Below are positions 21,966 through 36,000 of a DNA stretch of 64,000 bases, piece after piece. Origin of the DNA: Clostridia bacterium (GTDB taxonomy: Bacteria; Bacillota; Clostridia; Oscillospirales; CAG-272); assembly GCA_017505785.1 (NCBI GenBank), contig JAFVOQ010000020.1:13489-77488 (forward strand), in the 5' to 3' direction. The notes below the pieces were generated by a model. That model did not search any database, was not told the origin of the DNA, and saw only the letters and a list, made by a program, of their open reading frames with translations. The translations under genes were made by a program, and so were the position numbers. How positions within the stretch are numbered: the first letter of the stretch is position 1; the number at the start of each line of letters is the position of its first letter.

Positions 21966-24401
21966 ATGAATTACACCCCTAACGCAAAAGATGTAAAAAA
22001 GAATATTGAAGAAAAGCTTTCCCGCCATTTCGGCATGACAGCAAAGGAAGCAACCAAGGAGCAGCTCTACAAGGCGGCGGCACTTACCGTCAAGGATATC
22101 TTGGTAGAGAAGCGCAATCAGTTTAAGGATAAGGTAAACGAACAGGGCGCTAAGCGCGTGTACTATATGTGCATGGAATTTCTGCTTGGCAGATCCCTTA
22201 AGACCAATCTTTGCAACCTTGGCTTGCAGGAGAATTACCGCAAGGCACTGAAATCCCTTGGTGCAGATCTTGAGGTGCTGTATGAGTGTGAGCCCGATGC
22301 AGGTCTTGGTAACGGCGGTCTTGGCCGACTTGCCGCCTGCTTTATGGATTCGCTCTCCTCGCTTGATTATCCCGCAACCGGCTTTTCGCTTTGCTATGAG
22401 TACGGTCTTTTCAAGCAAATGATCGTTGACGGTATGCAGATCGAGCTGCCCGATGCATGGCTGCCCGGCGGTGAGGTTTGGCTCTCGCCCCGTGCCGACC
22501 GTGTGTACAAGGTGCATTTCGGCGGACACGTGAAGGAGGAATGGAGGGACGGCAAGCTGGATATCACCTATGAGGGTGGTGAGGAGTATGAGGCCGTTCC
22601 CTACGATATGATGATCTCGGGTGCTGACAGCGATGCGGTATCCCAGCTTCGCTTGTGGAAGGCAAGGCCCGTCAGCAGCTTTAACATGGGTCTTTTCTCG
22701 CAGGGACAGTATACCCTTGCTATGGAGCAGACCAACAACGCAGATATCATTACGAAGGTGCTGTATCCTGCCGACAACCATACCGAGGGCAAGCTTTTGC
22801 GCCTTACCCAGCAGTATTTCTTGGTTTCCGCTTCCTGTCAGAGCATCATTCGCGATCACATGATGGTTTACGGCAATCTTGACAATCTCCCCGAAAAGGT
22901 ATCGATCCATATCAACGATACCCACCCTGCACTCTGCGTTCCCGAGCTGATGCGTATTCTCATTGACGAGTATTGCTTCTCTTGGGAAAAGGCATGGGAT
23001 ATTGTTACACGTACGGTTTCCTATACCAACCACACCGTTATGCCCGAGGCACTTGAAACCTGGAATGAGGATCTTTTTGCTCTCAAGCTGCCCCGTATTC
23101 ATATGATCGTAAAGGAGATCAACGAGCGTTTTTGCCGCGAGGCTTGGCAATTCTTCCCCGGCAACTGGAACCGCATTTCCGCACTCAGCGTAATTGCTTA
23201 CGGTCAGGTGCGTATGGCAAACCTTTCGGTGATCGGCTCGCATAAGATCAACGGTGTGTCAAAGCTTCACTCCGATATTTTGGTAGATACCGTATTTAAG
23301 GATTTCTACCGCATGTACCCGAGTCGCTTTACCAACGTAACAAACGGTATCGCGCATCGCCGTTGGCTGGTCTACTCCAATCCCGAGCTCGCAGGCCTGC
23401 TTGACGAGTGCATCGGCGAAGGGTACCGTCACGAGCCCGAGCGCCTTGCCGATTTCCTCAAATACAGCAATGACGCTGCCGTGCTGGAAAAGCTTGCTGC
23501 CATTAAGCACAATAATAAGGTGCGCTTTGCAAATCATTTGCAGAAGAAGACGGGCATTGTGCTTGACACCAACTCGATCTTTGACGTGCAGATCAAGCGC
23601 TTGCATGAGTATAAGCGTCAGCTTCTCAATGCCCTGAACATCATTGGCCTTTATTTGGATCTCAAGGAAAATCCCAATTTGGATATACAGCCCCAAACCT
23701 TTATCTTCGGTGCTAAGGCGGCTCCCGGCTATGCTATGGCAAAGCGCATCATTAAGCTGCTGTGCATGCTGCAAAAGGATATTGAGCAGCATCCGAAGAT
23801 CGCCGCTAAGCTGCGTGTGGTATTCCTTGAGGATTACAACGTCAGCACTGCCGAGGCGCTTATCCCCTCTGCCGAGATCAGTGAGCAGATCTCTATGGCA
23901 GGTAAGGAGGCAAGCGGTACGGGCTGCATGAAGCTTATGATCAACGGTGCGCTTACCATTGGTACGCTTGACGGTGCAAACGTAGAGATGCAAGCGGCAA
24001 CCGGCCCCGAAAATATGTTCATCTTCGGTCTTAGTGCCAACGAGGTCAGTGAGCTTTGGAACAAGGGCTACAATTCCGCACTGTACTATGCACAAAATGA
24101 GCGTCTTGCACGCATCGTCAACTACCTTAACGTTGGCTTTGCGGGTGAGAACTTCTCGGATATCGCGACCTACCTGCTGGCAGGCCCCGGCGTTGCCGAT
24201 CCCTATCTTTGCCTTGCTGATTTCGAGTCCTACCGTCAAGCACACTTGGCGGCCCTCAATGCCTATGCAGATAAGACACGCTGGAACCGTATGTCGCTTG
24301 CTAACATTGCAGGCGCGGGCTTCTTCGCCGCGGATCGCAGCATCAACGATTACGCAAGAGATATTTGGCATCTCAAGCGTCTTGTTACAGAGAAGAAATA
24401 A
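21966..24401 (+). CDS. glgP: glycogen/maltodextrin phosphorylase
   Basis: 811 aa with GNGGLGRLAACF and the PLP-site region EASGTGCMKLMINGA. Confidence 0.95.
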   Translation: MNYTPNAKDVKKNIEEKLSRHFGMTAKEATKEQLYKAAALTVKDILVEKRNQFKDKVNEQGAKRVYYMCMEFLLGRSLKTNLCNLGLQENYRKALKSLGADLEVLYECEPDAGLGNGGLGRLAACFMDSLSSLDYPATGFSLCYEYGLFKQMIVDGMQIELPDAWLPGGEVWLSPRADRVYKVHFGGHVKEEWRDGKLDITYEGGEEYEAVPYDMMISGADSDAVSQLRLWKARPVSSFNMGLFSQGQYTLAMEQTNNADIITKVLYPADNHTEGKLLRLTQQYFLVSASCQSIIRDHMMVYGNLDNLPEKVSIHINDTHPALCVPELMRILIDEYCFSWEKAWDIVTRTVSYTNHTVMPEALETWNEDLFALKLPRIHMIVKEINERFCREAWQFFPGNWNRISALSVIAYGQVRMANLSVIGSHKINGVSKLHSDILVDTVFKDFYRMYPSRFTNVTNGIAHRRWLVYSNPELAGLLDECIGEGYRHEPERLADFLKYSNDAAVLEKLAAIKHNNKVRFANHLQKKTGIVLDTNSIFDVQIKRLHEYKRQLLNALNIIGLYLDLKENPNLDIQPQTFIFGAKAAPGYAMAKRIIKLLCMLQKDIEQHPKIAAKLRVVFLEDYNVSTAEALIPSAEISEQISMAGKEASGTGCMKLMINGALTIGTLDGANVEMQAATGPENMFIFGLSANEVSELWNKGYNSALYYAQNERLARIVNYLNVGFAGENFSDIATYLLAGPGVADPYLCLADFESYRQAHLAALNAYADKTRWNRMSLANIAGAGFFAADRSINDYARDIWHLKRLVTEKK

Positions 24402-26317
24402 TGTTAGCTAAAAAACAGCTTGAATTTCCCCTGCCGCAGCTGAAAAAGCATGTAGGCGGCAGGGATGTAAGCGCGCGCGGTGCCTTCTTCTGCCGTGATA
24501 CCTTGGTATTCACGGCACAGGTGCCGCGCACCATGGGCGCGGCCGCTGTTGTGCTGCGTATTGCGCCCGACGGGGGCAGGGATGCGGATCATCCATTTGC
24601 CTTTGTTGATACCAAGGGCGGGATCGATACCTACCGCCTTTCGGTATCCCTTAAAGAACTTACATCGCCCCGCACGCACGGGCTTTTTTACTATGAGCTG
24701 CTGTTTCTGCGCAGCGGGGACACGCTCTTTACCGATACCAAGAGTGATAACGTAAGCTTTTCACTTTCCACTGAGAGCCGCGGCAGATTTCGGCTATTGG
24801 TTTCGGAAAACGAGTATACAACGCCTGCGTGGTTTCACGGAAAAACGATGTATCATATTTTTGTGGATCGCTTTGCCCCCCACGGGGGTGTGCACCCCGA
24901 GGGGGCGGTGTATCATGAGGGGTGGTATGAGGAGATCGAGCAGTTTGGCGCTTATCCGGGAGCTCCCGTTGCCAACAACGAGTTTTTTGGCGGCACACTG
25001 TGGGGCGTGATCGATAAGCTCGATTATCTTGCAGAGCTCGGTGTTGGTGTGATCTATCTCTCGCCTATCTTCAAGTCGGTATCCAACCACAAATACGATA
25101 CGGGCGACTATGAAACGGTGGATCCGCAGTTTGGCGGCAGAAGGGCCCTCGATGCCTTGATCGCGGCGGCCGCGGAGCGCGGTATGGGCGTGATGCTTGA
25201 CGGCGTGTTTAATCACACGGGTGATAATAGCCGTTATTTTGACCGTTACAGCACTTACGGTGGGAACGGTGCGTACAATTCAAAGCAATCCCCCTATTAC
25301 GATTGGTTTTATTTTAAGCAGTATCCCGATAAATACGAGTGCTGGTGGGATATTCCGATCCTGCCGAAGCTCAATCTTTCAAACCCTGCTGTGCACCAAT
25401 ATTTTGTGGGTGAGGGCGGTATCATCGATACCTATACCAAGGCAGGAATACTGGGTTGGCGACTTGACGTTGCTGACGAGCTGCCCAACGCCTTTCTCGA
25501 TGACCTGCGCCTGCGCGTGAAGAACGCCACGGGCGGTGAGGGCGTGGTGTTAGGCGAGGTATGGGAGAACGCCGCGGATAAGATCGCCTATGGCAAGCGC
25601 CGCCGTTACTTTGAGGGCAAGCAGCTGGACAGCGTGATGAATTATCCGTTGCGCCGTGGCATCATTTCCTTTGTGCGCGACGGCGATGCCGCAGCCCTTT
25701 GCGCCGCTTTGCGTGAGCTTTGGGGCTCGTATCCCACGTCGGTTTGTCACAGCCTGATGAACATTCTCTCCACACACGATACCGAGCGTATTCTTACCAC
25801 CCTTGGCGGTCAGAAGGACGACGGGCGTTTTACAAACGCCGAGCTGCGCAAAATGCGCATGTCCCCTGCCGCGCGTGCGATTGCCCTATCCCGTTTGCGG
25901 ATCGCTGCGGCATTACAGTATACCGTATTTGGTGTGCCCTCGCTTTTCTACGGTGATGAGGCCGGACTTGAGGGGTATCATGATCCCTTCTGTCGCCGTC
26001 CCTATCCTTGGGGGCGCGAGGACAAGTCGCTTTTGCGGTATTACAAAAAGCTTGGCAGGATCAGGCGCGAGAACGCCGTTTTCGCCGACGGGGATTTTGA
26101 GATCGTTGCTGAGTCTGCGCATGCCATTGCTTTTTCGCGCAAGAATGAGAAAGGGCATATCATTGTAGGTGCAAATTGCGGCAGTGAGCCATTTTCTATA
26201 TGCCTGCCTCGCCCCGCCCGCGATCTGCTTTCGGGCAAGCAGTATGGACGCCGCGTTACGCTTGACGCGGGAGAAGTTTGCGTTTGGAGGATAAAGCATG
26301 TTTCGTCGCATCATTGA
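24401..26317 (+). CDS. GH13 alpha-glucosidase/neopullulanase-like glycoside hydrolase
   Basis: ATG at 24401 overlaps the glgP stop. GH13 conserved regions are present (DGVFNHTG, GWRLDVADEL, GEVWE, LSTHDTER). Confidence 0.85.
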   Translation: MLAKKQLEFPLPQLKKHVGGRDVSARGAFFCRDTLVFTAQVPRTMGAAAVVLRIAPDGGRDADHPFAFVDTKGGIDTYRLSVSLKELTSPRTHGLFYYELLFLRSGDTLFTDTKSDNVSFSLSTESRGRFRLLVSENEYTTPAWFHGKTMYHIFVDRFAPHGGVHPEGAVYHEGWYEEIEQFGAYPGAPVANNEFFGGTLWGVIDKLDYLAELGVGVIYLSPIFKSVSNHKYDTGDYETVDPQFGGRRALDALIAAAAERGMGVMLDGVFNHTGDNSRYFDRYSTYGGNGAYNSKQSPYYDWFYFKQYPDKYECWWDIPILPKLNLSNPAVHQYFVGEGGIIDTYTKAGILGWRLDVADELPNAFLDDLRLRVKNATGGEGVVLGEVWENAADKIAYGKRRRYFEGKQLDSVMNYPLRRGIISFVRDGDAAALCAALRELWGSYPTSVCHSLMNILSTHDTERILTTLGGQKDDGRFTNAELRKMRMSPAARAIALSRLRIAAALQYTVFGVPSLFYGDEAGLEGYHDPFCRRPYPWGREDKSLLRYYKKLGRIRRENAVFADGDFEIVAESAHAIAFSRKNEKGHIIVGANCGSEPFSICLPRPARDLLSGKQYGRRVTLDAGEVCVWRIKHVSSHH

Positions 26318-26636: not shown

Positions 26637-26689
26637 TACTTTTTAAGCCTTGACATGGGAAAAGACACTAAAATTTATCGCCGCAGGGC

Positions 26690-26990
26690 TTGTGTGTTCG
26701 GACTCTCTCTTGCCTAGGCACAACCGACAAGTCCGAACACGCCTGTGATGGCGAAATATCGGGACTTTCGGAATTGTCGTCCTTGCAAGGATCGCACCTT
26801 GCTTCGTCCTTCGCATCCCAAATTCCTCAATATTTCGCACACCACAGGTCGAAGAATTTTGCAGGAACAAATTTTTGGTGGGTGCAAGGCAAAAACAGAG
26901 TGAAACCAAGCGGTTTCACGAGTATTTTAACGTGGCAACAACCTAAATTTGTCCTACAAAATCGAGTTCGGACTTGTCGGTTGTGCCTAG
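26690..26990. repeat. nested inverted-repeat (MITE-like or structured-RNA-like) element
   Basis: A perfect 25-nt inverted repeat lies at 26714-26738 and 26966-26990 (CTAGGCACAACCGACAAGTCCGAAC). An inner imperfect inverted repeat lies at 26742-26759 and 26830-26848. A separate hairpin lies at 26900-26919. No ORF is present. Confidence 0.7.
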
Positions 26991-27006
26991 TGAAAAGAAA
27001 AAGATC

Positions 27007-27040
27007 GAGGGGAGGTCCTTTTGCAAAAGGACCTCCCCTC
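27007..27040. terminator. bidirectional intrinsic terminator
   Basis: GAGGGGAGGTCC-ttttgcaaaa-GGACCTCCCCTC forms a perfect 12-bp stem. It lies immediately 3' of the minus-strand ABC operon. Confidence 0.8.
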
Positions 27041-27049
27041 AATCTTTGT

Positions 27050-28930
27050 TTATGAGGCATTTTCAGTGTTCCACTGATATTTTTCGGACTGGACACGAAA
27101 CATTTCTGCATATTTGCCGTTTTGCAATAGAAGCTCGCTGTGACTGCCTTCTTCAATCAATCTGCCGCTATCAAACATATATATTTTGTCGGCAATACGT
27201 GTTGTTGAAAGTCTGTGCGAGATGAAAATGACGGTTTTGTCATTTGTGTGATGCAATATCGACTGGTTGAGCTTATACTCAGCCATAGGGTCAAGCGCAC
27301 TGGAGGGCTCGTCCATGATAATCAAGGTGTGATCCTTTGCAAATACGCGTGAGATCGCTACCTTTTGTGCCTCGCCCCCTGAAAGATTGGTGCCCTTGTC
27401 ATTGAATTCACGTGTGAGATGTGTGTGTATCCCGTCGGCAAGCTCTGATAGCTTTTCACTGAAATCTGCCGCTTCGAGCGCTTTTTGTACGGTTTCCCTA
27501 TCCTTGGTATCATCATAGCTGCCGTTCATAACGTTTTCAGCCACCGTGGTAGCAAATATCTTGAAATCCTGAAACACTGTACCGATCATTTTACGGTATT
27601 CGTCGGTGTCAAATTCCTTTATATTTATACCGTTGTAGAGGATCTCTCCCTCTGTTGGGTCATAAAGACGCATGATGAGCTTGATCAGTGTGGTTTTTCC
27701 TGCACCGTTATATCCCACGATCGCTATTTTTTCTCCCTTGTGGATCGTTAGATTGACATTCTTTAGCGCGTCCTTATTTTCATCCTCTTTTTTGGGTGAT
27801 ATATGATCTTCATCATGAAAAAGATATTTGGGATGCGCGGAAAATTCGTAGGAAAAGCTTACGTTTCTCAGCTCGAGTGATTCAAATGGGGGCAGCGATA
27901 GCTGGCCTTTTTTGATATTGGGTGTAAATCTTAAAAACTCGCGGTATTTTTCTACATACAAGGAATGCTTTGCATATTTGGTCAGCCTTTCCGTAAGGTC
28001 TGTTAGCATCCAGCGTATCTTTCCAACTACGGTAGCACTTGCTGCAAATCCACCGATCAGAAGTGAGCCTTTGCCAAGCATGACGATCATGTATATAAGG
28101 ATGAGCGAATAGGTAAGGTTGAATGCGGCATTCCACCCAAGACCGTACAGAAAAAAATACTTTTTCCCGTACTTTTGTTCCATATCAATAATTTTTTGCG
28201 CATTTTCATCGTATTCCTGCATCAGCAGATCGTCTGCGCGGCTGATACGGAGCTCCTTTGCATAATCGGAAAGGCGATATACGCGGTTGATATAGGAATT
28301 TTTTCGCCATAGCGGCGTGGATTCCTTGCTGTGCTGAAAGCTTACTTTGTTTCCGAGCAGATTACAGATGACAGTGATGGCTGATGATACAAGCAAAATC
28401 AAAGCAATAATGGGATCTACGGTTATCAGTAAGCTTATGAGCGTTGTGGAAGCCACAATTCTGTTTATCAGCTTTCCTGTATCCTCGAGCACCTCTGTGG
28501 CACGTGTGTGGGATTCGTTCATTGCCCATACGTAATCATCGTAGAATTCGGGATCGTCAAAGCAAGCGAGGTCAAGGGAGCGCGACTTTACAAAAAGCTC
28601 CTCGTGCATCTTCAGATACAGCTTTTCACGCATGATGGGATTGTGTATGCTCCGATACCATCTGTCAAACAGATAAGCGAGGATATAAAACAGCGCCATG
28701 AAAGCAATTATTTTTAGGGCGTGTGCAAAATCCGTGCCTTGGCTTACGGTATTCAAAAGATTGAATGTGTAATAAGCTGAAGCAGAATTGATAAATCCCC
28801 AGATAACACCCTCAATGATCATGAAGATAAAGTAGTCGGGTGTGTGTTTGGCAATCTTTTTTATCATAAAAAGATTGTTTTTGAAGATCGACGATATTTT
28901 TTGCTTTTTCCTTTGGGTTTTAGCATGCAT
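27050..28930 (-). CDS. ABC exporter, fused permease/ATP-binding subunit
   Basis: 626 aa with an N-terminal 6-TM domain and a C-terminal NBD (Walker A GYNGAGKTT, signature LSGGEAQK, Walker B LIIMDEPSS). Confidence 0.9.
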   Translation of the reverse strand: MHAKTQRKKQKISSIFKNNLFMIKKIAKHTPDYFIFMIIEGVIWGFINSASAYYTFNLLNTVSQGTDFAHALKIIAFMALFYILAYLFDRWYRSIHNPIMREKLYLKMHEELFVKSRSLDLACFDDPEFYDDYVWAMNESHTRATEVLEDTGKLINRIVASTTLISLLITVDPIIALILLVSSAITVICNLLGNKVSFQHSKESTPLWRKNSYINRVYRLSDYAKELRISRADDLLMQEYDENAQKIIDMEQKYGKKYFFLYGLGWNAAFNLTYSLILIYMIVMLGKGSLLIGGFAASATVVGKIRWMLTDLTERLTKYAKHSLYVEKYREFLRFTPNIKKGQLSLPPFESLELRNVSFSYEFSAHPKYLFHDEDHISPKKEDENKDALKNVNLTIHKGEKIAIVGYNGAGKTTLIKLIMRLYDPTEGEILYNGINIKEFDTDEYRKMIGTVFQDFKIFATTVAENVMNGSYDDTKDRETVQKALEAADFSEKLSELADGIHTHLTREFNDKGTNLSGGEAQKVAISRVFAKDHTLIIMDEPSSALDPMAEYKLNQSILHHTNDKTVIFISHRLSTTRIADKIYMFDSGRLIEEGSHSELLLQNGKYAEMFRVQSEKYQWNTENAS

Positions 28931-30779
28931 CCTGCTTCACCTCGCTTCCAAGATAATTTTGTGCCTGACGGTTAAACATTTCGGCGTATTTTCCGTTTTG
29001 ATCCATAAGCTCCCGGTGGGTTCCGGATTCTATGATACATCCGTCGTCCATAAGAAGGATCCGATCGGCAAGCACGGCAGAAGAAAGCCTGTGTGAAATG
29101 AATATAACGCTTCTTCCCTTAGTGGCGCGCATCATATTTTCAAACATTTTATATTCGGCAATCGGGTCAAGCGCGCTGGATGGCTCATCAAGGATAACAA
29201 AAGGTGTGCTGTCCCCAAATATCCTTGCCAGTGACAGCTTTTGCTGCTCACCGACCGAGAGATTTTCTCCTTTTTTATCAAATTCGCGTGTGAGCACGGT
29301 GTCAAGACCGTTTTTCATCCGTTCTACACGTTCAAATGCGCCGCTTTCCCGCAGTGCATGCTCCACAAGCTCTCTATCTCCCGTTCTTTGGGGGCGGAGC
29401 AGGACATTGTCCTTCACGCTCATGGAAAACATTTTGAAATCTTGAAAAACCGTACTGAAGGAATTGCGATAGGATGAAAGTGAAAACTCCTTTATGTTTT
29501 GATCGCCGAGTGTGATCTCTCCTTCGGTTGGGTCATATAGGCGCAGCATCAATTTGATCAGTGTAGTTTTGCCCGAGCCATTGCTTCCTACAAGTGCTAC
29601 ACGCTCACCCTTTCGTAGGGTAAAGCTTATGTTTTTCAATGTGTCGTGCTCCGCGCCGTCATATTTGAAGAAAAGGTTTTTTACCGCGATATCTCCGCCG
29701 TCGTTGGGGGCAACAAGCGCACCGCCAACAAGGGTGGGCTCGTAATCGAGAAAGAAGCGCACGTCCTCAAGGAAAAGCGCGTGCTCGCCAAATTCGGCAA
29801 AATTTTGCACAAGGTTGTTCAGGCAATAAGAGATCGTACCGATAGATCCGATCACCACGATACAGTCGCCGATATTCATGCCTCCGTTTTGCGGACCTAT
29901 CACCATGTTGCTCCATACTGCATAAAGTGTAGCTCCCAGCACCGTAACCACCTCAAGCCCTACATTTCGGATATAGCCAAAAATTGCCTTGCGCGTGCCG
30001 TGCTTTTTTGTAAGTGCGCAAAAATCACGGATGCTTTCTCTGAAATCGCGCAGCATGTTTTCGTGCATTCCACCGATACGCATCTCTTTGGCGTATTCGC
30101 CAAGATAAAAGGTTCTGCGCACATATTCTTTGCGGCGGTTGATAGGCTTCTTTGCGGCTTTATATTTGTGATTTGCAATATTCTCAAGGCGCCTGAAAAA
30201 GCCCAAAAGGAGAGGGAACAGACCGAAAAGTATAAGTAATGGATCAATAATAAAAAGCAAAAGAGAGTTTGCAAAAAGCGCGGTGAATTTCCCGATCAGA
30301 CTGTCGAGTGTCTGCATGACTTTTATAACGCGGTTTTGTGCTTCGTCCATTGCTTTTACGTATTTGTCGTAGAAGGAAGGGGTTTCGTAGCATGCCAGTT
30401 CTACCGTTGCTGCTTTTCTAAACAGCATTTTCTGAATATGCATAGCGATTTTTCTATACATTTTTTGAGAAGTGACACGCCAAAACCATTGCAGCGCTGT
30501 GTATGTAATTAAAATGACAGCGCCGAGAATTGCGGTAAACATCAAAGCATTGGCTATGGGGGTGCCGCTTGAGATATCGTTAACAATTTTTCTTAAAAGA
30601 TAAGAGCCCGAAAGGAAATCAAGGGTTCCGTATACGATCGAGGAGGATAAATAGATAAAAAGATATATGGGCGATGCCCGCCATATCGCTTTCAGGGCAA
30701 AAATGTTGTTTGATATGTTTCTTTTAAGAGAAAGCTTTTTCTTTTTTTCTTTGGATTTATCGTTTGTTTTTTTAGGCAT
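28920..30779 (-). CDS. ABC exporter, fused permease/ATP-binding subunit (heterodimer partner)
   Basis: ATG at 30779 (MPKKTNDKSKEKKKK...). NBD motifs are GSNGSGKTT, LSVGEQQK and FVILDEPSS. It overlaps the downstream partner by 11 nt. Confidence 0.9.
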   Translation of the reverse strand: MPKKTNDKSKEKKKKLSLKRNISNNIFALKAIWRASPIYLFIYLSSSIVYGTLDFLSGSYLLRKIVNDISSGTPIANALMFTAILGAVILITYTALQWFWRVTSQKMYRKIAMHIQKMLFRKAATVELACYETPSFYDKYVKAMDEAQNRVIKVMQTLDSLIGKFTALFANSLLLFIIDPLLILFGLFPLLLGFFRRLENIANHKYKAAKKPINRRKEYVRRTFYLGEYAKEMRIGGMHENMLRDFRESIRDFCALTKKHGTRKAIFGYIRNVGLEVVTVLGATLYAVWSNMVIGPQNGGMNIGDCIVVIGSIGTISYCLNNLVQNFAEFGEHALFLEDVRFFLDYEPTLVGGALVAPNDGGDIAVKNLFFKYDGAEHDTLKNISFTLRKGERVALVGSNGSGKTTLIKLMLRLYDPTEGEITLGDQNIKEFSLSSYRNSFSTVFQDFKMFSMSVKDNVLLRPQRTGDRELVEHALRESGAFERVERMKNGLDTVLTREFDKKGENLSVGEQQKLSLARIFGDSTPFVILDEPSSALDPIAEYKMFENMMRATKGRSVIFISHRLSSAVLADRILLMDDGCIIESGTHRELMDQNGKYAEMFNRQAQNYLGSEVKQDAC

Positions 30780-30813
30780 TTTTAACCTCACTGCATAAAT
30801 GCTTACGATGGTT

Positions 30814-31023
30814 TTAGTTTTCTTCAAACAGATTTTTGATCTCAACGCCAAGCGCCGCGGCAAGATCGTCAAGTATGAGAAGGTCGGGACAGCTTTGCCC
30901 ACGTTCCCATTTGGAAACTGCTTGAACCGAAACAAAGCATTTTTCTGCCACGTCTTGCTGCTTTAAGTGTGCCATATGTCGAAGATGGGAAAGTCTTTGT
31001 CCGAAATTTTTTATATCGAGCAC
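30814..31023 (-). CDS. small XRE-family HTH regulator
   Basis: GTG at 31023 preceded by AAAGGAGG. The ~69-aa product (…FGQRLSHLRHMAHLKQQDVAEKCFVSVQAVSKWERGQSCPDLLILDDLAAALGV) is a typical HTH_3 protein. The track's longer ATG-initiated version lacks an RBS. Confidence 0.75.
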   Translation of the reverse strand: MLDIKNFGQRLSHLRHMAHLKQQDVAEKCFVSVQAVSKWERGQSCPDLLILDDLAAALGVEIKNLFEEN

Positions 31024-31287
31024 AGCTTGCCTCCTTTTATGATTTTGGTATAGATTATAATGGTTAATGCTTTTTCGAATTATATCATATATATTAAAAA
31101 TTGTCAATGACATTTACAGTTTAATTCGACAAATATGAAACAATAATATTATTTTGTTTCTATTTTTATTGAAAAAAGATGAAGTATAAAACGATCGTGC
31201 TATAAACGTAAATAGAAATATAGGCTTGACAAGCTAAATGCTTAATGTTAAAATATGTAGTAAGAATGTTAGAAAAGGGGTAAGGCA

Positions 31288-32331
31288 ATGCCAGATCTAA
31301 AGCTCATCAAAAATCCGGGATATGTTTATGATCTTATTTTTTTGTTTTATTACAAGTACAATGTCGATCAATTTCCCGAATTGTTTGAAGCAAATGAAGA
31401 AGACATGAAGTATTTTTCCGAGAAATTCAAGCTTTTTGAACCAATCTCGGATGATCTATACATTTTTTTCAGAGCCGCAGCGGATAAGCATTGCTTTTTT
31501 ACTTTAAACTATTTTCACAACTGTGCGAAGGCGTTTACAACCGAGTATGACCTTGCTTTTTTGCAAAAGCAGATAAATGATTACGACTTGTTTGTGAAAA
31601 ACGTGATCGAATACTATTTTGAAGACCTTGATGAGAGTGAAATAAATGAATGTATAGGATCAAAAAAACATTTATTTGAGATCATAAAAAAATCGGATTA
31701 TGATGATAAGTTAAAGGCAAAGCTCTATGAGTTTTTCATGGACCCGGAGTATTATATACGTGTGCTACAGTATGAGCTTATGGCGAAAGATGTTCAGCTT
31801 TCCTCCTACTATGAACGAAATTATGCGAAGATACTTGATGCGTATAATGAGTTGAATTATGAATTACTTGAGGAAAGGTTTAGCTTTCTCGAGTATCCGA
31901 AAATTGACAAGGCTGCTGGGAATCCTATATATCTTTCATTTTGCCTTTTAAATAAAAATCTTTTGCAGTTTAGATGCGCTTCACAAGTGCTTTATTTGAT
32001 AGGGATTGAGTATCTTTCTTCCCTTGAACGTTTGAAAAAAAAGCATATCGATCTTATCCCCGAGCAGTTTGGCGCGGCGCTGTCTGATGTCAACCGTGTA
32101 AAAATGCTTGAGATCATCCTGCAAAAGACAGAGTGTACCTGCAAGGATCTTGAGGTGATGCTGGGACTCCCCCCCTCAACGGCATATCATCACGTGAGCA
32201 CGCTTGAAAAGTGTGGGGTTGTGAAAAAAAGGATCATTAAAAAGTCGATCCTTTATAGCATTAACCGAAAATACTTTGCTACAATAATAGAATATTTCAA
32301 AAAATTTTCAGAAACTACCCCAAAGCAGTAA
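31288..32331 (+). CDS. ArsR-like winged-helix protein with a ~250-aa uncharacterised N-terminal domain
   Basis: 347 aa in an AT-rich gene. The C-terminal segment VNRVKMLEIILQKTECTCKDLEVMLGLPPSTAYHHVSTLEKCGVV looks like an ArsR/HTH_20 motif. Promoter TTGACA-N17-TAAAAT lies at about 31226-31254. Confidence 0.75.
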   Translation: MPDLKLIKNPGYVYDLIFLFYYKYNVDQFPELFEANEEDMKYFSEKFKLFEPISDDLYIFFRAAADKHCFFTLNYFHNCAKAFTTEYDLAFLQKQINDYDLFVKNVIEYYFEDLDESEINECIGSKKHLFEIIKKSDYDDKLKAKLYEFFMDPEYYIRVLQYELMAKDVQLSSYYERNYAKILDAYNELNYELLEERFSFLEYPKIDKAAGNPIYLSFCLLNKNLLQFRCASQVLYLIGIEYLSSLERLKKKHIDLIPEQFGAALSDVNRVKMLEIILQKTECTCKDLEVMLGLPPSTAYHHVSTLEKCGVVKKRIIKKSILYSINRKYFATIIEYFKKFSETTPKQ

Positions 32332-32458
32332 TAACTACGCAATACGCCGCCCTCAAGAGATCAAACGCTTTTGAACGCGTGAGGTGCATACCTCTAGAGG
32401 AAAAACATCAAAAAACGCACTCCCCTCGGAAAACAACAGGGAAAACGCAAAATAATGG

Positions 32459-32487
32459 TTGACAAGCAAATCCTTTTGTGATAAAAT
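32459..32487 (+). promoter_or_regulatory. promoter of the SCIFF operon
   Basis: TTGACA (32459-32464), a 17-nt spacer, then TGaTAAAAT (extended -10 ending at 32487). Confidence 0.55.
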
Positions 32488-32519
32488 TTTACTAACGAAC
32501 AGCAAAGGAGATTTTTCTC

Positions 32520-32660
32520 ATGAAAAGAATTACAACCATTGAAACCAAGGATATTGCAAAAACCGTAACGACCGGCGGCTGCGGCGAGTGCCAAACCTCT
32601 TGCCAGTCTGCTTGCAAAACCTCTTGCGGCGTTGCAAATCAGCAGTGCGAGAACAAGTAA
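32520..32660 (+). CDS. scfA: SCIFF (six-cysteines-in-forty-five) ranthipeptide precursor
   Basis: Hand-translated and not in the ORF track because it is under 60 aa. The product is MKRITTIETKDIAKTVTTGGCGECQTSCQSACKTSCGVANQQCENK. AAAGGAG RBS lies 8 nt upstream. The GGCGECQTSCQSACKTSC core matches the SCIFF family signature. Confidence 0.9.
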   Translation: MKRITTIETKDIAKTVTTGGCGECQTSCQSACKTSCGVANQQCENK

Positions 32661-32673
32661 TTGTTTCACACAT

Positions 32674-32709
32674 AAAACGCTGCCCCTGTGGCAGCGTTTT
32701 ATATTTGTT
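32674..32709 (+). terminator. intercistronic hairpin with T-tract between precursor and maturase
   Basis: AAAACGCTGCC-cctgt-GGCAGCGTTTT forms an 11-bp stem followed by ATATTTGTT. Confidence 0.6.
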
Positions 32710-32720
32710 AGGAGAATAAT

Positions 32721-34097
32721 ATGGTACATCAATATAAACTGAACGGATATAACATTGTGCTCGATACGGCAAGCGGCTCGGTACACGCGGTAGACGAGGT
32801 GGCGTATGACATCATTGCCATGTATGAGCATGCCACAGCCGAGGAGATCGTTTCGGCAATGCTCCAAAAATACGGCGACCGTGAGGACGTCACGCGTGAG
32901 GAGATCCTTGCCTGTCTTGACGATGTTGCGGCACTGAAGGATGCGGGCAAGCTTTTCTCGGTGGATCCTTATGAGAACCTTGCCACTACATACAAAAACA
33001 ACAGTAACGTAGTGAAGGCACTTTGCCTGCACGTGGCACACACCTGCAACCTTTGCTGCGAATATTGCTTTGCGGGGCAGGGCAAATATCAGGGTAAGGA
33101 TGCCTTGATGAGCTTTGAGGTCGGCAAGCAGGCACTTGATTTTCTCATTGCCAATTCGGGTACACGCCGCAACCTTGAGGTCGATTTCTTCGGCGGCGAG
33201 CCGATGATGAACTTTGAGGTCGTAAAGCAGCTGGTGGCTTACGCGCGCGAGGTAGAAAAGGAGAAGGGAAAGAACTTCCGCTTCACCTTTACCACAAACG
33301 GTGTACTGCTTGACGATGACGTGATGGACTTCCTCAACCGTGAGATGAGCAACGTGGTGCTCTCGCTTGACGGCAGAAGGGAGGTCAACGACCACTTCCG
33401 TAAAAACGCGGCAGGCCGCGGCAGCTACGATATTATCGTACCGAAGTTCCAAAAGCTGGTAGAGAAGCGCGGCGGCAAGAATTACTACGTGCGCGGTACG
33501 TTTACCCACCAAAACGTTGATTTTACAAACGACCTGTTCCATATGGCGGATCTCGGCTTTACCGAGCTTAGCATGGAGCCTGTTGTTTGCCCGCCCGATG
33601 ACCCGTATGCCCTCACCAAAGAGGATCTGCCCCTGCTTTTCGAGCAGTATGAGATCCTGGCAAAGGAGATGCTCAGGCGCGAAAAAGAGGGCAGACCCAT
33701 TACCTTTTATCACTATATGCTTGACCTTAAAAACGGGCCTTGCATTTATAAGCGCATCACGGGGTGCGGATCTGGTACCGAATATATGGCTGTAACGCCC
33801 GCAGGTGAGCTCTACCCCTGTCACCAATTTGTAGGTGATGCACGCTATCGCCTTGGTGACGTGTGGAACGGCGTATCGAATACCGCCGTACAGGATGAGT
33901 TTCGCCATTGTAATGCCTATGCACGTTCTGAGTGTAAGGAGTGCTGGGCAAGGCTTTACTGCTCCGGCGGTTGCGCCGCAAACGCTTACCATGCCACGGG
34001 CAGTATTGGCGGTGTTTATGAGTACGGATGCGAGCTCTTTAAAAAGCGTATTGAGTGTGCTGTGATGATGCAGGTTGCCAAATCGGAGCAGGTATGA
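32721..34097 (+). CDS. scfB: radical SAM/SPASM thioether-forming SCIFF maturase
   Basis: 458 aa with the radical-SAM motif CNLCCEYC (Cx3Cx2C) and a C-terminal SPASM Cys cluster (GCGSG…CKECWARLYCSGGCAANAY). It is directly adjacent to scfA. Confidence 0.9.
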   Translation: MVHQYKLNGYNIVLDTASGSVHAVDEVAYDIIAMYEHATAEEIVSAMLQKYGDREDVTREEILACLDDVAALKDAGKLFSVDPYENLATTYKNNSNVVKALCLHVAHTCNLCCEYCFAGQGKYQGKDALMSFEVGKQALDFLIANSGTRRNLEVDFFGGEPMMNFEVVKQLVAYAREVEKEKGKNFRFTFTTNGVLLDDDVMDFLNREMSNVVLSLDGRREVNDHFRKNAAGRGSYDIIVPKFQKLVEKRGGKNYYVRGTFTHQNVDFTNDLFHMADLGFTELSMEPVVCPPDDPYALTKEDLPLLFEQYEILAKEMLRREKEGRPITFYHYMLDLKNGPCIYKRITGCGSGTEYMAVTPAGELYPCHQFVGDARYRLGDVWNGVSNTAVQDEFRHCNAYARSECKECWARLYCSGGCAANAYHATGSIGGVYEYGCELFKKRIECAVMMQVAKSEQV

Positions 34098-35434
34098 CAA
34101 CACCGATCTTGGATTTTGTGCGGCGTTATGCCGAAAAAAACGGCATGCGCTTTCATATGCCGGGGCATAAGGGTAAGGCGCACCTCGGCTGTGAGCAGCT
34201 TGATATAACCGAGATCAAGGGTGCCGACGTGCTCTATGATGCCATGGGAATTATTGAGGAGAGTGAGCAAAACGCCACGGCACTCTTTGGCAGCGCACAC
34301 ACCTTTTATTCTACCGAGGGGGCTACGCTTGCCATTAAGGCAATGCTTGCCACCGTGGCAACGCAGCTGCCGCGCGGCGCGCAGCTCCACATACTCGCGG
34401 CGCGTAATGCCCACAAGTCGTTTTTGTACGGCGCGGCACTTCTTGACGCCAAGGTGACCTGGCTTTATTCGACAAAGGCGGCACATCTTTGTGCTTGCCC
34501 CCTCTTGGCAGATGATGTAAAGAGCGCACTTTTGGCGTGTGAGGAAAAGCCCCACGCCGTGTATCTTACCTCGCCCGATTACCTCGGTAATGTGGCGGAT
34601 ATCGCGGCGATTGCCGCCGTTTGTGAAGGCTTTGGTGTGCCCTTGCTTGTGGACAATGCACACGGCGCGTATCTTAACTTTTTGTCGCCCTCAAGGCATC
34701 CTATTGCATTGGGTGCTACCATGTGTGCGGATTCTGCCCATAAAACCTTACCTGTTTTAACGGGTGGGGCGTATTTGCATATTGCCAAAAAGGCACCCGA
34801 AGCGTATTTAAAGGGCGCAAGAGATGCGCTTTCGCTCTTTGCCTCTACCAGTCCCTCGTATCTCATACTCCAGTCACTTGACCGCTGTAACGCATATCTT
34901 GCGGGTGAGTATCCCACAGCACTTGCCGAAACGGCGGCGCGGATCGCCGGCGTTCGTGCGGTGCTTTCATCACACGGCTACTGTGTGCTTGAGGGCGAGC
35001 CCTTAAAGATCGTGATCGAGGCGACTAAAAGCGGTTACACGGGTGAAGCACTTGCAGACATTTTGCGTGAAAACGGCATTGAGCCCGAATTTGCCGACAA
35101 GGAATTTTTGGTGCTGATGTGCACCGAGGGGAACGGGGAAGCGGAGCTTTTGCATCTTTGCACAGTCTTGTGCAGTGTGCCGCTTGGCGCAGCACTTCCA
35201 CAAAAGCAGCTTCCCACCATACGCCCCGTGCCCTCCTTATCCATAAGAGAAGCAATGCTTTCTCCCTGTGAAACGGTGCCGCTTTCCCCGGCACAGGGGC
35301 GCATTTGCGCCGCCCCCACCGTTTCCTGCCCACCTGCCGTACCCATTGCGGTGGCAGGCGAGTATATCGATGCGGATGTTGTTGCGCTCCTTAGGCATTA
35401 CGGTGTTGATAAAATAAAAGTTGTAAAAGAATAA
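34094..35434 (+). CDS. PLP-dependent Orn/Lys/Arg decarboxylase family protein (YaaO-like)
   Basis: The ATG at 34094 overlaps the scfB stop (ATGA). Motifs are FHMPGHKG and the PLP-lysine region DSAHKTLPVLTGG. Confidence 0.85.
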   Translation: MTTPILDFVRRYAEKNGMRFHMPGHKGKAHLGCEQLDITEIKGADVLYDAMGIIEESEQNATALFGSAHTFYSTEGATLAIKAMLATVATQLPRGAQLHILAARNAHKSFLYGAALLDAKVTWLYSTKAAHLCACPLLADDVKSALLACEEKPHAVYLTSPDYLGNVADIAAIAAVCEGFGVPLLVDNAHGAYLNFLSPSRHPIALGATMCADSAHKTLPVLTGGAYLHIAKKAPEAYLKGARDALSLFASTSPSYLILQSLDRCNAYLAGEYPTALAETAARIAGVRAVLSSHGYCVLEGEPLKIVIEATKSGYTGEALADILRENGIEPEFADKEFLVLMCTEGNGEAELLHLCTVLCSVPLGAALPQKQLPTIRPVPSLSIREAMLSPCETVPLSPAQGRICAAPTVSCPPAVPIAVAGEYIDADVVALLRHYGVDKIKVVKE

Positions 35435-35484: not shown

Positions 35485-36000
35485 TTACGGTGTCAAAATT
35501 TTTTGGCAGATCAAAAGCGTTTTTTGGAGCGTTTCGCTAAGCCCCTCGGCGCAGGTTTCCTCATCTACAATATGATCGGCATATGCTTCATAAAGCGCGG
35601 TGCGCTCGCGGTAAAGATCCTTTAAGGTATATCCCTCGCGTAAGATCACGCCGCGATGCACGTAATCGCCAAGACGGGCGGTAAGCGTTTCATAGCTGAT
35701 CTTCAAATAGATCACCGTTCCAATGCTTTTGAGGTGCGCCATTGCCTCCTTGCCGTAAACGGCACTGCCACCCGTGGAGATGACGGTGCGGCTCGCTTCA
35801 AGCGCGGCGCACACCTCGTTTTCAAGCTGTAAAAAGCCCTCTATGCCGCGCTCGGCAATGATCTCGTGCAGCAGCTTTCCGTGGTGCTCCTGTATGGCGA
35901 GGTCGGTGTCGATAAAACGGTAGCCAAGGTTTTTGGCAAGCAATACCCCCACCGTGCTTTTGCCGCACGAGGGCATGCCGATGAGTATGATGTTGTTCAT
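35485..36000 (-). CDS. aroK: shikimate kinase
   Basis: 171 aa with the P-loop GMPSCGKST. Size and pattern are typical for AroK. Confidence 0.9.
   Translation of the reverse strand: MNNIILIGMPSCGKSTVGVLLAKNLGYRFIDTDLAIQEHHGKLLHEIIAERGIEGFLQLENEVCAALEASRTVISTGGSAVYGKEAMAHLKSIGTVIYLKISYETLTARLGDYVHRGVILREGYTLKDLYRERTALYEAYADHIVDEETCAEGLSETLQKTLLICQKILTP

Follow-up and report, generated by a model that had tools for sequence, protein, structure and literature searches.

Ranthipeptide clusters of the six-cysteine SCIFF type are reported to be the most conserved biosynthetic clusters across the orders of Clostridia, occurring at most once per species (bioRxiv 10.1101/2025.02.12.637840). The first SCIFF system characterized in vitro was Tte1186a/Tte1186 of Caldanaerobacter subterraneus, for which one thioether involving Cys32 has been reported (PMC8326336, PMC8172795). 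Another described member of the same family is CteA/CteB (thermocellin) of Acetivibrio (Clostridium) thermocellus. Here, we analyzed a 64,000-nt stretch of contig JAFVOQ010000020.1 (assembly GCA_017505785.1, a Clostridia bacterium), referred to below as the window, and in particular a short open reading frame (ORF), scfA, together with the radical S-adenosylmethionine (SAM) enzyme gene that follows it, scfB. A preliminary description of the window had proposed that the two genes form a SCIFF precursor/maturase pair. The identification is correct, and the pair is an already known, routinely annotated member of the family. We are highly confident that the locus is a SCIFF ranthipeptide operon of canonical type, belonging to a Clostridia genome of the Oscillospiraceae type, and we propose a mechanism for it below.

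The scfA gene begins with an ATG at 32520 and comprises 46 codons, which translate into MKRITTIETKDIAKTVTTGGCGECQTSCQSACKTSCGVANQQCENK. Both the ORF and its six-cysteine translation are exactly as given in the preliminary description. The ORF is absent from the output of the ORF-finding tool at its default minimum of 60 aa and appears at min_aa=30, so that the length cut-off probably explains why scfA was missing from the original ORF track. Residues 1–18 of ScfA constitute the leader, which is followed by Gly19-Gly20 and the Cys-rich core, GGCGECQTSCQSACKTSCGVANQQCENK. The six cysteines are C21, C24, C28, C32, C36 and C43. The peptide matches the precursor model TIGR03973 over its full length with 78.4 bits (cut-off 50; E=2.8e-22), and the Pfam SCIFF family (PF13165) with 78.3 bits (cut-off 27).

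The 458-aa enzyme is encoded exactly 60 nt further downstream (spacer 32661–32720), as had been described. ScfB scores 755.8 bits against the maturase model TIGR03974 (cut-off 425) and 560.8 bits against the exception model NF040492 (not_ScfB), under the cut-off of the latter (855). Its Pfam architecture consists of a PqqD-like RiPP (peptide made by ribosomes and modified post-translationally) recognition element (RRE), Radical_SAM, Fer4_12 and SPASM. The RRE corresponds to PF05402 (PqqD) at about residues 12–69 (27.1 bits, cut-off 23.4). The CNLCCEYC motif, reported earlier along with a C-terminal Cys motif, spans residues 109–116; the cluster ligands are C109, C113 and C116 (CX3CX2C), and C112 is not conserved. 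The SPASM cysteines, which provide the seven-Cys motif together with further ligands for two auxiliary clusters, are C341, C349, C367, C405, C408, C414, C418, C437 and C446. In an alignment of five sequences, the three ligands and the nine C-terminal cysteines are invariant, and all of them are aligned to cysteines of CteB. CteB is also the closest solved structure (5WGG/5WHY, E=8e-168, full length), and the identity between ScfB and native CteB is 53% over the full length. The residues of the CteB catalytic site, F112, F152, T186, S210, H363 and Q364 (PMC10288494), all have identical counterparts in ScfB (F117, F157, T191, S215, H368 and Q369). Thus, model cut-offs, cluster Cys motifs, RRE and catalytic-site residues concur in assigning ScfB to the SCIFF maturases. 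Both of the hidden Markov models (HMMs) named for verification in the preliminary description, the RRE-radical SAM-SPASM layout and the match to CteB support its identification of the pair, and we found nothing that contradicts it. A 569-aa ORF antisense to scfB (32394–34103, minus strand) has no Pfam match and was taken as a non-coding antisense artefact.

Relatives of ScfB are encoded on at least 592 contigs when one genome per species is considered. The best 80 of them (72–97% identity) were kept for comparison. The best relative comes from an Oscillospiraceae metagenome-assembled genome (MAG), and most of the others from Clostridia MAGs obtained from ruminant or other gut samples. In 73 of these 80 species-level loci scfA is found upstream of scfB. 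Five of the seven remaining loci are short of upstream sequence, and a wider search recovered scfA in the other two. The exact 46-aa peptide is public on 90 contigs (NCBI, IMG and ENA). Members of the 90% identity cluster of ScfB carry the name ‘thioether cross-link-forming SCIFF peptide maturase’, and close relatives of ScfA are named ‘six-cysteine ranthipeptide SCIFF’. At 90% identity the SCIFF peptide family comprises 5,046 clusters; at 50%, it has 1,218 representatives. Describing the system as hidden, as had been done, was therefore an overstatement, since both the exact peptide and the enzyme are already public under the SCIFF name. By itself, the identification is of minor importance: most Clostridia possess a SCIFF pair, and NCBI's pipeline calls such pairs automatically.

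A few unusual arrangements were encountered among the relatives. Two public proteins (P0271 and P0272) contain two SCIFF peptides in tandem within one ORF, each having its own leader and core; they could be either tandem duplications or read-through calls. Three loci (L089–L091) have scfA with a CGI-type core and no scfB immediately downstream, and in one of them (L091) a gene for a group II intron reverse transcriptase follows scfA. Proteins of 593–594 aa also fall into the peptide's 90% identity cluster (the cluster of P0002, P0004 and others). We considered whether these might be fusions to the peptide; they share no similarity with it, and were grouped with it artefactually because very short sequences were being clustered.

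The pattern of nucleotide divergence provides a test of whether the small ORF encodes a peptide. Across 75 distinct DNA sequences, the divergence of core codons 19–44 is 0.379 at the third codon position, compared with 0.027 at the first and 0.015 at the second, so that variation at position 3 exceeds that at positions 1 and 2 by 14–25 times. A caveat applies to these statistics, as the ORFs in relatives were located by residues 19–36; residues 37–44, which were not used for this purpose, display the same pattern. Moreover, an earlier, looser search based on Cys counts gave identical scfA ORFs wherever both searches succeeded. This excess at third positions indicates that the encoded peptide is under strong purifying selection and that the small ORF is real and translated. 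The lack of translation, against which the preliminary description had cautioned, is at odds with these statistics. The score above the cut-off, the length and six cysteines, the position upstream of a TIGR03974 gene and the translation deduced from codon positions and the strong Shine-Dalgarno sequence are all those of a SCIFF precursor. It might be argued that the small ORF has arisen by chance and is not translated, and that the radical SAM enzyme is either an orphan or a maturase of another kind (not_ScfB, PapB or QhpD). Short ORFs are indeed common, as 58 of at least 30 aa overlap the 31–36 kb region. However, this explanation is effectively refuted by the HMM match above the curated cut-off, by the codon-position pattern and by the conserved position of the ORF upstream of scfB. 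As for other maturases, ScfB fails to reach the cut-off of not_ScfB (560.8 against 855), PapB (NF047865; 277.4 against 340) and QhpD (TIGR03906; 280.6 against 453).

The comparison of precursors bears on the position of the cross-link. In vitro work placed a single thioether at Cys32-Thr37, whereas co-expression in E. coli yielded a thioether from Cys32 to Thr34 via C-gamma (PMC8326336, PMC8172795). The CteA sequence, MKHIKILNGSTLKDSLKKGGCGECQTSCQSACKTSCTVANQSCEKR, was retrieved from the genome of A. thermocellus. It can be aligned with ScfA without gaps, and the cores differ at positions 37, 42, 45 and 46. Position 37 is Thr in CteA and Gly in the peptide from the window. Among the matches listed, Gly37 occurs in 73/73 loci, 121/121 nearest homologues and 134/135 diverse representatives, while Thr34 is invariant in all loci and in 135/135 diverse representatives. 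Because the searches list the nearest matches, these values apply to the query's side of the family rather than to the whole of it. With Gly at position 37, no Cys32-Thr37 link is possible in this large branch. The conserved acceptor is thus more likely to be Thr34 or another invariant residue. Since Thr34 is invariant and position 37 is Gly, a cross-link from Cys32 to the C-gamma of Thr34 would be the one best compatible with ScfA by homology. In the disputed assignment, the comparison thus supports Thr34 over Thr37 as the physiologically relevant acceptor. More generally, by analogy with CteB, the ScfA product is predicted to carry thioethers from Cys sulfur to C-beta or C-gamma (PMC8326336).

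Expression signals of scfA are close to the consensus. A sigma-A-type promoter consists of TTGACA at 32459–32464 and TAAAAT at 32482–32487, the latter preceded by TG, and matches 11 of the 12 consensus positions. A near-consensus promoter (TTGACA-17-TGnTAtAAT) precedes scfA in most of the 76 related loci, and GGAG or GGAGG is found at the place of the AAAGGAG Shine-Dalgarno sequence. Both the promoter and the strong ribosome-binding site assigned to the small ORF in the preliminary description were therefore located where expected. Between the two genes we found a stem-loop followed by UUUUAUAUUUGUU, which resembles an intrinsic terminator. The folding energy of the 60-nt spacer is -20.6 kcal/mol (z=-4.9), and none of 200 shuffled sequences was as stable. 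Of 77 loci, 87% have a hairpin of -12 kcal/mol or lower with a T-run after it, in contrast to 1.3% of 385 dinucleotide shuffles. The stem sequence varies between loci. The distant loci of A. thermocellus and Ruminiclostridium likewise have a hairpin between their scfA and scfB genes. In the window, just 18 nt lie between the stem and the start of scfB, and these contain the AGGAG Shine-Dalgarno sequence. A promoter scan of the plus strand between 32488 and 32720 revealed no promoter-like site for scfB, and an Rfam scan of the scfAB locus and its surroundings gave no match to a known RNA. Because no alternative scfB promoter was found, we infer that the hairpin acts as a leaky terminator (attenuator), so that scfA mRNA would be abundant and read-through into scfB minor. 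Thereby, it probably sets the ratio of precursor to enzyme. The conserved leaky-terminator layout predicts a large excess of the former over the latter.

Putting these observations together with the biochemistry of characterized homologs, we propose the following mechanism. The strong, constitutive-looking promoter would drive transcription of a short leader and scfA, and most transcripts would be expected to end at the hairpin and U-tract right after scfA. The minor fraction that reads through would cover scfB and the overlapping gene for a pyridoxal phosphate (PLP)-dependent enzyme, resulting in far more precursor than enzyme mRNA. The PqqD-like RRE of ScfB would then bind the approximately 18-residue N-terminal leader of ScfA, and the [4Fe-4S] cluster coordinated by C109, C113 and C116 would reductively cleave SAM. 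The resulting 5'-deoxyadenosyl radical is expected to take a side-chain hydrogen from the acceptor residue of the core, and the thioether would link this residue to the sulfur of a cysteine bound by the open iron of auxiliary cluster I. Several points weigh against this scheme. The catalytic steps are all carried over from CteB and Tte1186 by analogy (reviewed in PMC8326336 and PMC8172795). How many cross-links native SCIFF peptides contain, and where, is still disputed (PMC8326336). The leakiness of the terminator is deduced solely from the absence of another scfB promoter. Finally, no protease or exporter is linked to scfAB in any of the branches examined, so that processing and export are left unexplained. 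Overall, the preliminary description summarized the state of knowledge accurately: biochemical work has demonstrated the thioethers, whose bearer, the mature peptide, has a still unresolved physiological role.

One possible lead to this role is provided by the gene next to scfB. The start of a PLP-dependent Orn/Lys/Arg-decarboxylase-family gene overlaps the scfB stop (GTATGA; ATGA). The protein matches OKR_DC_1 (E=1.8e-34) and OKR_DC_1_C in Pfam, as well as PDB 2X3L (E=1.6e-28). A homolog (46–86% identity) lies directly 3' of scfB in 71 of the 80 loci, and no other flanking gene is common to them. The start of the gene is no more than 30 nt away from the scfB stop in 64 of these 71 loci, and it overlaps this stop in 46. 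The HMPGHK motif, D187 and the lysine motif S214-x-H216-K217 are at least 97% conserved among 76 decarboxylase-family sequences. Eight loci of the Ruminococcus type have instead a same-family paralogue (25–30%, approximately 27% identity) upstream of scfA. One locus (L080) shows the order prfC, decarboxylase-family gene, scfA and scfB, followed by feoB on the opposite strand. We treat the decarboxylase-family gene as a putatively co-transcribed, translationally coupled and clade-specific partner of scfB, and its link to SCIFF only as a candidate.

Other branches have a different organization. Downstream of scfAB, A. thermocellus, Ruminiclostridium josui and C. thermosuccinogenes carry a gene for an HD or hexapeptide-repeat protein and, after it, secDF; in the latter two species, queA-tgt-yajC-DUF3792 precede scfAB. 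Another Gly37 sub-branch has the order scfA-scfB-65 aa-DUF218 and lacks the decarboxylase-family gene. Since the gene is absent beside scfB in these branches, its linkage, as judged from gene order, is not a trait of the SCIFF family and may represent inherited gene order. Nevertheless, in the clade studied here scfA, scfB and the PLP enzyme gene could form a three-gene unit, in which the PLP enzyme and the cross-linked peptide act together, the enzyme either tailoring the peptide or needing it or being regulated by it. QhpD may offer an analogy, as it cross-links QhpC in the making of an amine dehydrogenase subunit; outside the SCIFF maturase models, no enzyme of known function scores higher than QhpD. 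A three-gene unit would account for the retention of this single conserved neighbour at rather low sequence identity, its tight spacing, the Ruminococcus-type paralogue and the conserved catalytic residues. On the other hand, the linkage is confined to the clade. In addition, enzymes of the Orn/Lys/Arg-decarboxylase family act on free basic amino acids, and we found no paper connecting SCIFF with such an enzyme. On balance, we consider a functional three-gene unit unlikely. Its more specific version, namely that the cross-linked peptide is an intracellular partner, regulator or substrate of the PLP enzyme and not a secreted signal, is by analogy conceivable but quite improbable. If true, the partnership would be the first biochemical handle on the purpose of the SCIFF peptide. 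In any case, a clade-specific coupled enzyme gene offers a cheap experimental lead.

Knock-outs of scfAB in C. beijerinckii altered the expression of agr and sporulation genes, which their authors read as quorum sensing (PMC8102284, PMC8326336). These results suggest a regulatory or quorum-sensing-like effect of SCIFF. As to a complete quorum-sensing system, no exporter, protease or sensor/receptor is conserved beside scfAB in any branch examined, although a distant locus might encode them. Pheromones and bacteriocins usually diversify, whereas the core of ScfA is nearly invariant from Oscillospiraceae to Acetivibrio. Judging from these sequence features, the near-invariant core and the lack of a conserved exporter, protease or receptor would fit poorly with a species-specific pheromone or antibiotic. 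It might then be argued that the mature peptide instead stays inside the cell as a Cys-rich peptide of housekeeping type, perhaps binding a metal or cluster or taking part in redox reactions. This would agree with the presence of at most one copy per Clostridia species (bioRxiv 10.1101/2025.02.12.637840), with the housekeeping nature of the scfAB neighbours and with the absence of a conserved immunity gene, as well as of an exporter or protease, nearby in the branches examined. However, the quorum-sensing reading of the knock-outs argues against it, and the similarity to a ferredoxin-type motif is weak. This similarity, to epoxyqueuosine reductase, came from comparing the peptide with PDB chains (E=0.05) and was treated as chance. 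We therefore regard an intracellular housekeeping role as possible, though rather doubtful.

Upstream of the operon, an insertion of about 5.7 kb (26639–32376) has a GC content of 29–44%, compared with 52% for the window, and ends 82 nt before the -35 box of scfA. It is absent from the nearest relative (L001) and looks like a strain-specific accessory island. The insertion encodes ABC-ATPase-containing proteins and helix-turn-helix (HTH) regulators, which were evaluated as candidates for a SCIFF exporter and regulator. Both assignments were rejected, as the 97%-identical relative L001 lacks the insertion. For the ABC genes, matches in other loci represent generic ATPase-domain similarity (25–32% identity). 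The coordinates of the operon and of its surroundings are collected in Table 1.

Table 1. Features of the scfAB locus and the neighbouring parts of the window
Feature	Position	Strand	Basis or remark
Sigma-A-type promoter of scfA: TTGACA, 17 nt, TG-n-TAAAAT (extended -10)	32459–32487	+	Consensus match
Shine-Dalgarno sequence of scfA, AAAGGAG, 9 nt before ATG	32504–32510	+	Read from sequence
scfA, SCIFF precursor, 46 aa	32520–32660	+	TIGR03973, PF13165, codon-position pattern
Intrinsic-terminator-like hairpin: 13-bp stem, 5-nt loop, U-rich tract	32672–32709	+	Folding, conservation
Shine-Dalgarno sequence of scfB, AGGAG, 6 nt before ATG	32710–32714	+	Read from sequence
scfB, radical SAM/SPASM thioether-forming SCIFF maturase, 458 aa	32721–34097	+	TIGR03974, Pfam, CteB
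PLP-dependent Orn/Lys/Arg-decarboxylase-family gene, 446 aa from ATG at 34094	34094–35434	+	Pfam, PDB 2X3L
Shikimate kinase gene, converging on the operon end	35485–36000	-	Housekeeping neighbour
Glycogen/starch phosphorylase and alpha-amylase-family gene, upstream of the insertion	21966–26317	+	Housekeeping neighbours
Two ABC-ATPase-containing genes, N-terminal ~380 aa without Pfam match	27050–28930, 28920–30935	-	Pfam
XRE-type HTH gene	30814–31113	-	In the low-GC insertion
347-aa protein with C-terminal ArsR-type HTH	31288–32331	+	In the low-GC insertion
T-box leader RF00230, 97.9 bits	44082–44330	+	Sole Rfam match at the gathering threshold in the window

The arrangement of precursor gene, terminator and maturase gene is known from other RiPP operons, such as sboA-alb and nisA-nisB, in which it is thought to give an excess of the precursor transcript. 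The scfAB locus resembles them in having a strong promoter, a small precursor gene and a stem-loop before the modification genes. It differs in that we found no report of such a layout for SCIFF, for which the evidence presented here comes from comparative sequence analysis. QhpD is a homologous radical SAM/SPASM enzyme that likewise forms thioethers from Cys sulfur to C-beta or C-gamma. Instead of a 46-aa peptide, however, it modifies a subunit of an enzyme, quinohemoprotein amine dehydrogenase, and qhp genes are lacking here. In PapA/PapB (freyrasin) of Paenibacillus polymyxa, PapB is likewise a radical SAM/SPASM ranthisynthase that installs Cys-to-side-chain thioethers in a Cys-rich peptide (PMC8172795). 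Yet PapB belongs to a different equivalog and uses six Cys-X3-Asp motifs, whereas the ScfA core is devoid of Asp. Within the SCIFF family, the acceptor reported for Tte1186a is Thr37 as opposed to Gly37 in ScfA, a comparison that relies on reviews and not on the Tte1186a sequence itself.

CteA/CteB was compared at the level of both sequence and locus. The two systems belong to the same families (TIGR03973 and TIGR03974). They differ in the core at position 37 (Gly in ScfA, Thr in CteA) and position 42 (Gln and Ser, respectively), and in the spacer between the precursor and enzyme genes, which is 60 nt here and 150 nt in A. thermocellus. The genomic context also differs: scfB is followed here by the overlapping decarboxylase-family gene, while the order in A. 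thermocellus is pseudouridine synthase gene-scfA-scfB-HD gene-secDF. At the same time, both precursors are 46 aa long, both loci have a hairpin between the two genes, and CteB and ScfB, at 53% identity, share the same RRE-radical SAM-SPASM layout, with all 12 cluster cysteines and all six active-site residues identical.

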